Positions 22,435-25,911 of a DNA stretch of 50,014 bases are shown here, one piece after another (positions within the stretch are counted from its first letter, which is position 1; every line of letters begins with the position of its first letter). The DNA is taken from positions 1 through 50,014 of the forward strand of contig CAYWJO010000024.1 of NCBI GenBank assembly GCA_964458565.1. Direction: 5' to 3'. Position numbers and translations under genes: made by a program. The notes under the pieces are model-generated. The model saw only the letters and a program-made list of their open reading frames with translations, searched no databases and was not told the DNA's origin. The DNA is from an uncultured archaeon. GTDB lineage: Archaea > Asgardarchaeota > Thorarchaeia > Thorarchaeales > Thorarchaeaceae.

Positions 22435-23277
22435 TTGATAATCCGACCTATGCGTCAAAATGATTTGACATTTGCATTATTTTTGACGAACTATGAGAAA
22501 TGGTCGGATATTGCATTCGATTTTGAAACACTTATCTCATATCCAAAACAGGCGGCCTTCATTCTGGAGGCAGATGGAAAAAGAGTAGGAATGATTGGTA
22601 CTGTGAGCTATGAGCATATGGGATTTATTGGTTCTTTCATTGTTCATCCGAACTATCGTGGTCAGGGATACGGTACTGCGCTTTTTGACCATGGGATAGA
22701 TCATCTCAAAAAAATGGGGACGGAGTTAATTCTACTGGATGCAGTAGAAGAGGCTCAGTCATTTTATGAGAATAAGGGATTCAAAACTCTCTTCACATCC
22801 CATAGATTTCGTGGAACGCTTAGGGGCAAAAATAGTGATTATTGTCGGGTGATGAAGAAAGCAGATTTCAAGGATGTAGTATCAGTAGATAGTGAATGCT
22901 TTGGTGAGGACAGGTCTCACTTTCTCAAGAGTTTGTTGACGAATCATCCATTTCATGCACGAATCCTAGAATCATCCGAAGGAAACATCATAGGATTTGC
23001 ATTTGCAAGTGAGAGAAGTGAGTTCTTTAGAATAGGTCCCATGAATATACTTAGCAGGACAAACCTTGCAAGGGATTTGGTACTTAGTATTCCTTTGCCT
23101 AACCATGAAATTGAAGTAAGAATAGGAGTGCCAGGCTATAACGAAGAAGCTCTTTCGATGTATAGAGACCTAGGAATTCCAGAGTCAATATGTTCAATTA
23201 GAATGGGATTGGGAAATTTGGAGAGCATGAGAATGCACAAGGGACAATATGCTATTGGTTCACCTGCGAAAGGGTAG
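22435..23277 (+). CDS. GNAT family N-acetyltransferase (two-domain, YitH-like)
   Basis: VHPNYRGQGYG acetyl-CoA motif, FYENKGF, and a second domain containing FGEDR and IGP. Confidence 0.88.
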   Translation: MIIRPMRQNDLTFALFLTNYEKWSDIAFDFETLISYPKQAAFILEADGKRVGMIGTVSYEHMGFIGSFIVHPNYRGQGYGTALFDHGIDHLKKMGTELILLDAVEEAQSFYENKGFKTLFTSHRFRGTLRGKNSDYCRVMKKADFKDVVSVDSECFGEDRSHFLKSLLTNHPFHARILESSEGNIIGFAFASERSEFFRIGPMNILSRTNLARDLVLSIPLPNHEIEVRIGVPGYNEEALSMYRDLGIPESICSIRMGLGNLESMRMHKGQYAIGSPAKG

Positions 23278-23698: not shown

Positions 23699-24138
23699 CT
23701 ATACCACAGTAATCTCATAGGTTATTTCAGTCGGAATCTCAATGCTATATGCAACAGGACATGACTTGTGAGCAAGATCGATTACTCGCTCAACCTTTTT
23801 ACGTTCTTTCTCATTTGGAATGGTCACTTCAAGATGAAGTAAAATTCTATCGAACTTCCATACCTTGTCATCACGTTCACACATCTCTGCGTTAGCGGAA
23901 ACCTTACATCAGTGAATTCAGTACGCATTGCGGCGGCGGCTTTAAACATTGAAAGCACTATACATGATGCAGAAGCAGAGATAAAGAGTGTCTGCGGTGA
24001 GAAGTAACCCTCAGGTGCATCGGGCCACCAATCTGGTGCGGAGGTGACCTCGAATTCTTCCATTCCTTGAAGCTTGACTCCCACGAACATTGGTTTAGTC
24101 ACTCGAACTTCGAGTTGATAGTGATGGTTTTCGGACAT
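23699..24138 (-). pseudogene. OsmC-family protein split by a single-base frameshift
   Basis: The N-half (SPQTLF...ASC) is in one frame and the C-half (HKSCPVAYS) in another. At ~23904 the coding strand reads GAT GTA AG GTT TCC GCT AAC; adding one base restores DVKVSANAEM and a full-length paralog of 24189-24632. Confidence 0.85.
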
Positions 24139-24188: not shown

Positions 24189-24632
24189 TCAATCTCTCAA
24201 AATAATCTCATACTCAAGTTCGACGGGATTCTTCATCGAATTAGAAACGACGCAATACTGATGTGCACGTTCTGCGGCTTTTCTCATCTTCTTTTTATCT
24301 TTGGATGATGAAACCCAGATCTTCACAGACATGTGTATCTTATCAAATTCCCAGCCATATTCACCCTGAGCAAGAGTTCCATAGGCGTCAATCTCGAAAT
24401 CGTCAAATTCCGCATGATAGCGTTTTGCTACACCTGAAAGCGATACACCATAACATGTCACTGCCGATGCTAAATACAGCTCTTCAGGGGATAAAATTCC
24501 AGGAGGGCTATTTGGCCAAAAGTCAAGTGGAGTCGCGACTTCAAAGTCTGATTTTCCATTTATCCTGACATCGACGATTTTCTCACGCACCCATGTGGAT
24601 TTCATCTCGTATCTATGCTCTTCATTTGTCAT
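24189..24632 (-). CDS. OsmC/Ohr family protein
   Basis: SPEELYLASAVTC and AHQYCVVSNS carry the two conserved Cys. Confidence 0.92.
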   Translation of the reverse strand: MTNEEHRYEMKSTWVREKIVDVRINGKSDFEVATPLDFWPNSPPGILSPEELYLASAVTCYGVSLSGVAKRYHAEFDDFEIDAYGTLAQGEYGWEFDKIHMSVKIWVSSSKDKKKMRKAAERAHQYCVVSNSMKNPVELEYEIILRD

Positions 24633-24661
24633 TGTATATCACTCGAAAGTGACTCCCAATC

Positions 24662-24678
24662 ACACAATAGTATTGTGT
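24662..24678. promoter_or_regulatory. perfect palindrome, candidate operator upstream of the osmC pair
   Basis: ACACAATA-G-TATTGTGT, 30 bp upstream of the osmC start codon. Confidence 0.5.
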
Positions 24679-24729
24679 CGTGGCAAATCTTCAAAAAAAG
24701 AGATTACGCGCTCACTCTCATTCTTTGAG

Positions 24730-24743
24730 GAAGAGGTTTATTA
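24730..24743 (+). promoter_or_regulatory. candidate archaeal BRE/TATA promoter for the downstream structured RNA
   Basis: Purine-rich GAAGAGG followed by TTTATTA (24737-24743), about 25 nt upstream of the hairpin's 5' end. Confidence 0.5.
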
Positions 24744-24764
24744 GGAAAGAGTACTAATACTTGC

Positions 24765-24860
24765 TCGGTGGTTAGGTAGCTATCAGGGCACCTATATTCT
24801 GTAACATGCCCTCATAACTCCCCCCCTCCTACCAGTTGCCTTGATGGTACTAACCACCAA
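24765..24860 (+). ncRNA. putative structured non-coding RNA (long terminal stem, C-rich loop)
   Basis: GGTGGTTAG-G-TA-G-CTATCAGGGCA (24767-24790) pairs with TGCCTTGATGGTACTAACCACC (24837-24858), giving 22 bp with two bulged G and two G-U pairs that only form on the + strand. No ORF covers the region. Confidence 0.65.
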
Positions 24861-25002
24861 CTCATAGAATTGTTCTAATGACAAAATATTAGAGGGGAGG
24901 TATGTTTCAGATTAACTTTACAATTTGATAATATATCCAACAATGATTTGGCCCTGTAAGTTTTATACCTGCATTCGATAGTATTTCGTACATCCCAAAA
25001 GG

Positions 25003-25911
25003 TTGCTAGAGATGAAAATTGAATTACTCACAAAGGAATACACGAAAGATTGGACATCTTTCATCATCCAAACAAATTGGAAATTACCATGGAATCGAGA
25101 TACATATCAAAAACAAGTAATGCAATTCCTTGACGACAGTCAGCGTTATCATCCATACCTAATAAGAAAGGATGACAAACTTCTAGCTATCGGTACACTT
25201 GAAATTCTGAACGAGAAGGAAGGTCGCCTGGATCATCTAGCACATAGAGAAGGAGAAGATAAATCTCTAGGACTACTGATTGACCATTTATTATTGAAAG
25301 GTCGCAAGTATGAGATCAAAGAGATTTCGGCCTGGCTTTGGGATTCAGAGAAGGAGAAGATTCGAATAATAGAAGAAGTTGGATTCAAATCTACAAAAGA
25401 ATTGGCGTTAGTAGTGCGTAGATTATCAGACAGCATCGCAAAACCCATTTCGAAGAGTTTAACAATATCATCATTGAGAAATGGTGTTTCAATTGAGGAG
25501 TTTGTTACTGCTAATCGTATAGCATTCAGAGATGATGATTCGAGCCTGCTAAAAGTGGATGAACTAAATGAATGGTTGAAAGAAATTCCTGGATTTTTAC
25601 CTGAGCTACAGTTGGTTGCACTATCAGATGGAATGATAGTAGGTACTGTCATGTCTGAGTTTTTTGAAGTCATCACGAAAGAAGTGGTAATAGAGCGAGC
25701 ATGGGTCTATGGTCTAGGAGTCATTGCTGAATGGCGTAGAAGAGGAATAGGAACATCTCTTTTATCGGAGTTGATGAAACGACTCAAACATCTCGGTGTT
25801 GAAGAGTTATGGGCATTAACGGATACAGAAGGAGGGGTAAGGGAATTCTATGATGAGTTGGGATTCATTGAGAAGGATAGGTGGAAAGAGTTCGAACTCA
25901 AAGTTCAATGA
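25003..25911 (+). CDS. tandem GNAT family N-acetyltransferase
   Basis: C-terminal LGVIAEWRRRGIG and FYDELGF motifs, with a degenerate N-terminal GNAT. Likely start is ATG 25012. Confidence 0.88.
   Translation: MLEMKIELLTKEYTKDWTSFIIQTNWKLPWNRDTYQKQVMQFLDDSQRYHPYLIRKDDKLLAIGTLEILNEKEGRLDHLAHREGEDKSLGLLIDHLLLKGRKYEIKEISAWLWDSEKEKIRIIEEVGFKSTKELALVVRRLSDSIAKPISKSLTISSLRNGVSIEEFVTANRIAFRDDDSSLLKVDELNEWLKEIPGFLPELQLVALSDGMIVGTVMSEFFEVITKEVVIERAWVYGLGVIAEWRRRGIGTSLLSELMKRLKHLGVEELWALTDTEGGVREFYDELGFIEKDRWKEFELKVQ

Follow-up and report, generated by a model that had tools for sequence, protein, structure and literature searches.

A Thorarchaeia-specific family of small non-coding RNA genes with a covarying stem, an invariant C-rich loop and three syntenic paralogs

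Among described small RNAs (sRNAs) that carry an anti-Shine-Dalgarno-like motif, the cuckoo RNAs of the Alphaproteobacteria (CcsR1-4 / RSs0680, alpha-r14) consist of two to four adjacent short hairpins, each with CCUCCUCCC; RSs0680a is Hfq-bound, and pairing to Shine-Dalgarno (SD) sequences has been proposed for these CCUCCUCCC 'cuckoo' RNAs (PMC4615179). In Methanosarcina mazei, the archaeal intergenic sRNA41 and sRNA154 mask ribosome binding sites (RBS) in trans through anti-RBS loops, and their targets have been experimentally defined (PMC5867862). The subject of the present analysis is a stretch of 50,014 nucleotides (hereafter the window, meaning the whole stretch) from an uncultured archaeon of the family Thorarchaeaceae (assembly GCA_964458565.1, contig CAYWJO010000024.1), in which positions 24767-24858 (+ strand) are the type-A paralog of a Thorarchaeia-specific family of small non-coding RNA genes of approximately 95 nt, referred to below as the Thor RNA. 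Thorarchaeia belong to the Asgard archaea, to which eukaryotes are more closely related than to any other known prokaryotes. The literature searched contained no account of non-coding RNAs specific to Asgard lineages, and neither Rfam 15 nor the literature on Thorarchaeota or Asgard non-coding RNA yielded a description of this Thor C-rich-loop family.

The Thor RNA shares with the cuckoo RNAs its multiple copies, its highly variable stems around an invariant anti-Shine-Dalgarno-like C-rich loop motif, the conservation of synteny for subsets of copies and a link to stress genes. The cuckoo RNAs, however, are bacterial and built of short hairpins, whereas the Thor RNA is archaeal and forms one long panhandle with a 46-60-nt loop and two different invariant boxes, with a predicted promoter of its own for each gene, no Rfam match and no sequence homology to the cuckoo RNAs. 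Membership of the cuckoo/CcsR group was accordingly rejected, given the single panhandle and the presence of CCUCCU, not CCUCCUCCC, in CUCCCCCC(C)UCCUACCA. With M. mazei sRNA41 and sRNA154 it has in common an archaeal host, an intergenic position and an anti-RBS sequence in the loop; it differs from them in lacking sequence or structural homology, in that no extended target was found for it, and in a loop invariance that goes beyond the needs of RBS masking. The Y RNAs of animals and the bacterial YrlA resemble it in their long bulged terminal stem, large pyrimidine-rich loop, length of about 100 nt and several paralogs. The resemblance, which had been raised in a preliminary description of the locus, does not extend to membership: the Thor RNA has neither the Ro60-binding helix motif (orthologs read GGUGGUCAG[GUG]GCUAG, not GGUCCGA) nor a tRNA-like module, the Y_RNA model gave no match at E <= 10, and TROVE/Ro60 (PF05731) had no match in the 93%-complete window genome, in which the positive controls were detected.

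Within the window, the segment 24762-24865 (+) was folded by RNAfold at -31.8 kcal/mol (z = -3.3), an energy equalled by 0 of 200 dinucleotide shuffles. Its terminal stem, P1, pairs 24767-24775 with 24850-24858 (9 bp) and 24779-24790 with 24837-24848 (12 bp), and closes a loop of 46 nt (Table 1). The preliminary description, which was made from the letters alone, had proposed a promoter-preceded + strand structured RNA with a 22-bp stem, two bulged Gs and two G-U pairs. The long stem is real; its irregularities are instead a 3-nt 5' bulge, GUA, opposite a single A, together with three G·U pairs. The remaining elements lie where that description had placed them, namely AGGGCA (24785-24790), TGCCCT (24807-24812), TGCCTT (24837-24842), the loop segment CATAACTCCCCCCCTCCTACC (24813-24833), its downstream counterpart GAGGGGAGGTATG (24892-24904) and a mini open reading frame (ORF), MFQINFTI followed by a stop (24902-24928).

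Comparison with homologs carries the case for an RNA and for its strand, and with them the structure goes far past what chance would give. When 25 distinct type-A orthologs were aligned by MAFFT, RNAalifold returned the same two-part P1, with compensatory double changes at 9 of its 20 pairs; 93.6% of the P1 cells were paired, whereas column shuffles gave 86.7% (0/500) and sliding of the 3' partners by 1-3 columns left 28-53%. In a model-guided alignment of 101 copies of all types, which was fitted to the model and underlies the family-wide counts, the paired fraction was 94.1% against 70.2% in shuffles (0/500) and 39-49% in the slid controls, and double changes were found at 20/20 pairs, which supplies the homologs with compensatory stem changes that had been named as a check at the outset. 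G·U or U·G combinations in P1 cells numbered 229 against 35 for A·C or C·A, an excess that identifies the + strand as the strand selected to fold. The promoter-preceded + strand RNA first suggested for the locus is thus borne out by the covariation of P1, the preponderance of G·U over A·C and a TATA box at a fixed distance (see below).

Further features of the fold recur with paralog type. A 3x1 internal loop in P1 is found repeatedly in types A and C (GUG/A, GUA/A, GCG/A), and at the top of P1 the 5' GG(G) is unusually fixed while its 3' partners alternate between C and U. An inner hairpin, P2, is possible in types B and C and in the sister family (UUUCGU/ACGAAA or GUAA/UUAC) with box 1 as its loop, and a few variants of it are compensatory (for example UUUUGAA/UUCGAAA in L151 and UUCGU/ACGAA in L189); the joiner tract supplies the 5' strand of P2 in types B and C, and the type-A P2 is vestigial at about 3 bp (UGU/AUA). 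Box 2 is predicted to be unpaired in all types. Pairing of the loop CUACC with a 5' GGUGG, considered as a switch, was rejected as it is broken in type B (GGCGG).

With 24740-24930 as the query, the window's own assembly (G000; 3.7 Mb, 93 contigs, 93% complete) yielded seven further sites that share the loop centre. The constant core of the copies reads ACATGCCCTCA, then 3 to 14 nt, then CTCCCCCC(C)TCCTACCA, between flanking arms that are wholly different and still complementary; as RNA, the invariant core is ACAUGCCCUCA-spacer-CUCCCCCC(C)UCCUACCA, with 1-8 occurrences per genome. Of 24 further genomes from this GTDB family, which span 16 genera, 23 contain the exact core pattern; it was seen in 0 of 16 genomes of other families, and the reversed-pattern control gave 0 matches. 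Across all GTDB species genomes at least 117 core loci were found, and the titled records among the matches listed were Thorarchaeota, 'Promethearchaeota' (Asgard) or archaeal metagenome-assembled genomes, with one labelled Hermodarchaeota. A covariance model (R1) built from the type-A orthologs matched all 26 genomes sampled from the family and the single one sampled from its sister family, related genomes being samples not independent of one another, and 0/124 sampled genomes from 25 other Asgard families. The sister-family copy has a slightly diverged core, UUGCCCUCA...AACUCCCCCCUCCUAACC. The family also yields a clean, testable covariance model for the annotation of Thorarchaeal genomes.

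Three paralog types can be sorted by the spacer between the two boxes. Type A, to which the window copy belongs, has a UAA spacer and usually occurs once per genome; type B has a AUUACGAAA spacer and a shorter, GC-rich stem of 14 bp; type C has the spacer UUACA(C/U)AA(A). Across the three paralogs and at least 16 genera, 28 loop bases (17 + 11) are unchanged while other sequence drifts. Each type also retains its own neighbours across genera. Of 26 distinct type-A copies, 21 have a divergent OsmC gene, identified by Pfam, no more than 400 nt upstream, at a distance of 100-185 nt, as against 0 of 64 type-B and 0 of 33 type-C copies; type B sits between the gene for tetraether lipid synthase Tes (radical-SAM) and a PhzF-family gene, and type C is divergent from the gene for an unannotated protein of 448-475 aa. 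Such type-specific neighbours mark the paralogs as orthologous genes and not mobile repeats, and the miniature inverted-repeat transposable element (MITE) that the preliminary description had kept in view is not what the locus is. The conserved divergent arrangement of type A and OsmC may reflect a common regulation under stress.

A TATA-like motif, YTTAWTAR, stands at a nearly constant distance from the RNA. In 24 of 27 type-A copies it precedes box 1 by 64-70 nt and P1 by 27-33 nt, and 22 of 31 type-C copies have it 60-67 nt ahead of the core; in type B it is found further upstream, at 75-113 nt, and given this more distant motif a 5' leader is probable for the type-B RNA. Between the TATA box and P1 of type-B genes, 40-110 nt upstream of P1, a G-rich leader, GGTGGGTGTGTGGGA..., is conserved (for example in L053, L060 and L080), which suggests an extra 5' element particular to type B. 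In the window, GAAGAG-GTTTATTAGG fits YTTAWTAR and resembles the rRNA-operon promoter of relatives, GGAAAGGTTTTTATT. In archaea, transcripts start at a characteristic spacing downstream of the TATA box; with the usual value, the position of the box predicts a start at about 24764-24767, and the sRNA is accordingly expected, from the position of the motif, to be transcribed from its own TATA promoter. Downstream of P1, the flank opens with a semi-conserved A(A/C)CU and is pyrimidine-rich; runs of four or more T occur there in only about 30-46% of copies, which is under half of them and does not define the 3' end of the RNA. A scan for sigma-70 promoters and intrinsic terminators was set aside as uninformative for an archaeon.

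Table 1. Positions of the Thor RNA, its promoter and the adjoining divergent gene in the window.
Feature	Position	Strand	Details and basis
Archaeal promoter: purine-rich GAAGAG resembling a B recognition element (BRE), then TATA box GTTTATTAGG (24736-24745)	24730..24745	+	Motif at fixed distance
P1 5' strand	24767..24790	+	9 bp, 3-nt bulge GUA (24776-24778), 12 bp; top = AGGGCA; fold and covariation
Joiner CCUAUAUUCUGUA, variable, U-rich	24791..24803	+	Pairings of tract and spacer across copies
Invariant box 1 ACAUGCCCUCA	24804..24814	+	No variation among exact-pattern copies; conservation of at least 97% in the all-type alignment (A3)
Spacer UAA, marking paralog type A	24815..24817	+	Spacer classes
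Invariant box 2 CUCCCCCCCUCCUACCA	24818..24834	+	C-rich, predicted unpaired, holds CCUCCU
P1 3' strand, single unpaired A at 24849	24837..24858	+	Fold and covariation
3' tail AACUCAUAG...	24859..24873	+	First bases A-A/C-C-U semi-conserved; pyrimidine/T-rich, likely termination zone
OsmC-family gene, divergent, outside the RNA	24189..24632	-	Pfam PF02566, E = 3e-18

That the locus is a stand-alone, + strand, structured sRNA gene acting through its loop is considered highly probable. The Thor RNA occurs in every sampled genome of a whole order, with three syntenic paralogs and an rRNA-like promoter, and 28 unchanged loop bases beside a fully turned-over stem imply a conserved and probably abundant partner. 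The RNA is proposed to work as a panhandle in which P1, of about 21 bp and free to drift in sequence while it stays paired, most likely serves as scaffold or stabiliser and the loop as the working part; P1 would present an invariant and largely single-stranded loop composed of ACAUGCCCUCA, the type-specific spacer and CUCCCCCC(C)UCCUACCA. Action in trans, like the identity of the partner, is what we infer for the RNA: the exposed C-rich loop would most likely bind a G-rich partner, which may be AGGAGG SD-type segments of mRNA, with masking of translation in the manner of the bacterial C-rich-loop sRNAs and M. mazei sRNA41, or else the 28 invariant bases may be recognised by a conserved protein or ribonucleoprotein (RNP). 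Of the two alternatives in the preliminary description, a cis-acting switch and a trans-acting sRNA, it is the latter that survives.

Base-pairing of the loop to G-rich or SD RNA, as the particular manner of that action, is put forward tentatively and at somewhat less than an even chance. The 16S rRNA of relatives (3' end ...GGAUCACCUCCU) terminates in the same six bases, CCUCCU, that box 2 contains, and the window genome uses SD sequences, with a AGGAGGUGA peak at -15 to -8 before start codons; with CCUCCU in an exposed context, the RNA would in principle be able to pair with AGGAGG segments. Should the loop act on SD sites, it would represent a global translational regulator in an Asgard lineage. 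Several points weigh against this proposal. Near-complement targets in two complete Thor genomes showed no excess over the reversed-pattern control; in crudely defined start regions of the window genome, complementarity of 7 nt or more was found 53 times for the loop and 78 times for the reversed loop; and the osmC start region is not complementary to the loop. Furthermore, generic SD pairing would call for fewer than the 17 + 11 invariant bases, a point in favour of the alternative, a protein or RNP partner.

According to that alternative, the Thor RNA would be a protein-bound RNP RNA, whether it resembles Y RNA or vault RNA or serves as a decoy that draws a factor away from the 16S 3' end, and its loop would be a surface for protein recognition as opposed to base-pairing. 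This should be given serious consideration, its probability being appreciable though below that of base-pairing. The invariance of 28 loop bases over three paralogs and at least 16 genera would be readily accommodated, as would the failure to find an extended RNA target in the two complete Thor genomes or among the start regions of the window genome, the recurrent 3x1 internal loop of P1 in types A and C, and the CCUCCU common to the loop and the 16S 3' end. It is weakened by the fact that TROVE/Ro60 is absent and no candidate partner emerged, that the tandem G·A signature of a K-turn is missing when the sequence is read, and that no conserved RNA-binding or RNA-biology gene was found among the neighbours of the type-A, type-B or type-C paralogs. 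If the loop does bind a protein, a new RNP would be defined. A bolder combination is unlikely, in which the Thor RNA would be the RNA subunit of a Thorarchaeia-specific RNP that imitates the 16S 3' end and globally tunes translation initiation or small-subunit maturation under stress (in view of the OsmC pairing), and would at the same time be the first archaeal regulatory sRNA family with endonuclease-spliced introns of the bulge-helix-bulge (BHB) type.

The likeness to 16S rRNA was followed a little further. Over their last 50 nt or so, the 16S sequences of relatives (L194:1500-1660, L197:1500-1680, L205) read UCGUAACA and then CCUCCU, in the same order as the type-C core; rRNA was partly masked with N in these loci, and Rfam gave no small-subunit rRNA match in G000 or the two complete genomes. 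A 'mini-16S' origin, with P1 as the relic of an rRNA processing stem and the loop as that of the 16S 3' end, was rejected: the 16S leader/trailer stems GCUCAACAGUGC/GCACUGUUGAGC are unlike P1, and only UCGUAACA (in type C only) and CCUCCU are common to both, which was treated as chance-level. Mimicry of the initiator-tRNA anticodon loop (CUCAUAAC) was likewise set aside, being confined to type A, as was a + strand ORF from the loop AUG, which encodes MPS before a stop in type A and lies in a different frame between types.

A cis-acting switch or pseudoknot, the other alternative of the preliminary description, would have loop positions 24813-24825 pair with the SD and AUG at 24892-24904 to control the mini-ORF or the downstream GNAT gene, with AGGGCA toggling between two helices. 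The complementarity on which it was built is present in the window, where 24813-24823 match 24894-24904 over 11 nt at 91% and the duplex reaches -15.7 kcal/mol against -8.4 kcal/mol for shuffles, and AGGGCA is able to pair with either UGCCUU or UGCCCU. This alternative helix, AGGGCA/UGCCCU, is compatible with the sequence, its loop partner being invariant and hence outside the reach of covariation. Yet across the 25 type-A orthologs the loop-downstream duplex averages -9.2 kcal/mol, where shuffles give -8.9 and upstream DNA gives -10.3; the -15.7 of the window is an outlier. There is also no sequence conservation beyond about 10 nt past P1, mini-ORF region included; the genes downstream of type-A orthologs differ or are convergent, the conserved neighbour being the upstream divergent OsmC; and the same loop is found in types B and C amid unrelated contexts. 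A cis-acting role is therefore regarded as very improbable.

Even less credit is given to an element that functions as DNA, such as a MITE, a mobile hairpin or an attachment site for integrating elements. In its favour, several copies are present per genome, a truncated membrane-protein gene adjoins two 5'-truncated ones in a fusion, and one copy is interrupted by contig breaks. The copies are, however, orthologous at three syntenic loci across genera, their stems differ by compensatory change, unlike near-identical repeats, the G·U bias points to a + strand that acts single-stranded, the promoter stands at a fixed distance, and the one tyrosine integrase found in the genome is on another contig. 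Least plausible of all is a micro-ORF on the minus strand, where the reverse complement of the loop reads as an SD and the peptide MRAC... (GGAGGGGGGGAG-UU-AUG-AGG-GCA-UGU...) in types A and C, as the peptide has only 7 aa, type B lacks an AUG there, SD-to-AUG spacing ranges between 9 and 15 nt, no codon position is more variable than another, and the G·U bias and conserved promoter indicate the + strand. The minus strand of 24804-24834 reads like a perfect translation start, and the + strand loop may be described as an 'anti-start-region', with anti-SD CCUCC and then CAU at a spacing that varies by paralog type.

Known RNA classes were examined alongside these readings. Rfam 15 returned 0 matches at the gathering threshold over the whole window, in keeping with the first impression that the RNA belongs to no known family, and at E <= 10 only the chance-level H19_2 (11.7 bits) and Atu_C9 (7.6 bits) on 24600-25050; ARAGORN found no tRNA or transfer-messenger RNA in the window. 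A K-turn/L7Ae RNA (C/D, H/ACA) was rejected on reading the sequence, which has GUA/GUG opposite a single A followed by G-U/C-G pairs and no GA/AG tandem; nor is there an RUGAUGA/CUGA pair for C/D, or an ACA box positioned after the stem for H/ACA. A fragment of signal recognition particle (SRP) RNA or RNase P RNA was dismissed in view of a full-length Archaea_SRP on contig C47 (87.9 bits, model 1-317) and RNaseP_arch on contig C1 (142 bits). A cis-regulatory leader or riboswitch was discarded because no same co-directional gene is kept downstream and the pairing is not conserved.

Several orthologs with an intact P1 carry approximately 30 extra bases within the otherwise invariant loop, at three sites. 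The first site, after CUCCCCCCUC(C), is occupied in L011, L014 and L039, which come from different genomes and represent types A, B and C with a single copy apiece; the second follows CUCAUAA (L176) and the third follows CGUA(A) (L038/L121). The inserts fold alike: exon bases pair over 4 bp with the 3' end of the insert (CCCC/GGGG, CUCA/UGAG, CGUA/UGCG), the 5' strand has a bulge of 3-4 nt, and there are an inner hairpin of 7-9 bp and, on the 3' side, three unpaired bases (AAC, AAU or GAA). In L011 and L039, cuts between UC and A and between AA and C give back the intron-less CCCCUCCUACCA exactly. In two genomes, G008 and G015, the insert-bearing gene is the sole copy of its paralog type found by the exact-pattern scan and, for G015, by the covariance model also.

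This layout would be that of relaxed BHB-type introns, for which splicing is predicted. As in the archaeal BHB introns of tRNA and rRNA, a 4-bp central helix, a 3-nt bulge with a 3-nt unpaired segment and an inner hairpin are present, the size of about 30 nt matches that of tRNA introns in the window genome, and excision is exact for L011 and L039; the inserts differ in having no outer helix (the relaxed HBh' form) and in a host that is a small regulatory-type RNA and not a tRNA or rRNA. The tRNAs of the window genome are intron-rich, with introns, typically of 10-64 nt, in about 20 of the 32 ARAGORN predictions, three of which have a CAU anticodon; a tRNA-SeC was also predicted by ARAGORN in this 93%-complete assembly. 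Two separate EndA-domain genes are present (C1:27246-27500 and C5:17476-17736), and the heteromeric archaeal splicing endonuclease arrangement with two EndA proteins is one that accepts relaxed motifs. If the insertions are spliced, archaeal splicing would be extended to small regulatory RNAs. A distinct case is seen in three type-A copies of one genus (L177:1501-1633, L178, L180), where a 17-nt GC-rich hairpin, UCCCGCAUAUCGCGGGA, is inserted in the spacer that separates the two boxes, as an expansion that is not intron-like.

A number of minor observations concern the surroundings of the copies in the window's own assembly. The divergent OsmC gene of the window is one of an OsmC-like tandem pair at 23824-24138 and 24189-24632 (-), in which the second OsmC-like gene is a weaker and shorter match, and the pair is flanked by two GNAT acetyltransferase genes at 22435-23277 and 25003-25911 (+). 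The OsmC duplication recurs in relatives, where a second match with 30-35% identity is found at a distance of 600-860 nt. On the - strand of C12 the Thor RNA has two additional, lineage-specific copies, C12:60744-60836 and C12:65187-65294, with 4.4 kb from one to the other (L209, C12:57500-68500); they bracket a second OsmC-like gene (L209:4725-5171, -) and several ORFs without a Pfam match. In two 5'-truncated type-C copies (C16:857-925 and C2:971-1057) only the core and the 3' stem are retained, in fusion with the initial 26 codons of a gene paralogous to a family of 187-aa membrane proteins encoded in tandem; the stretches C16:687-938 (L003) and C2:971-1222 (L004/L010) share 92% identity over 253 nt. 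A contig break divides the intact type-C gene, with one part at the end of C14 (76196-76240) and the other at the start of C52 (1-85), the break being attributable to the repeat shared with the truncated copies.

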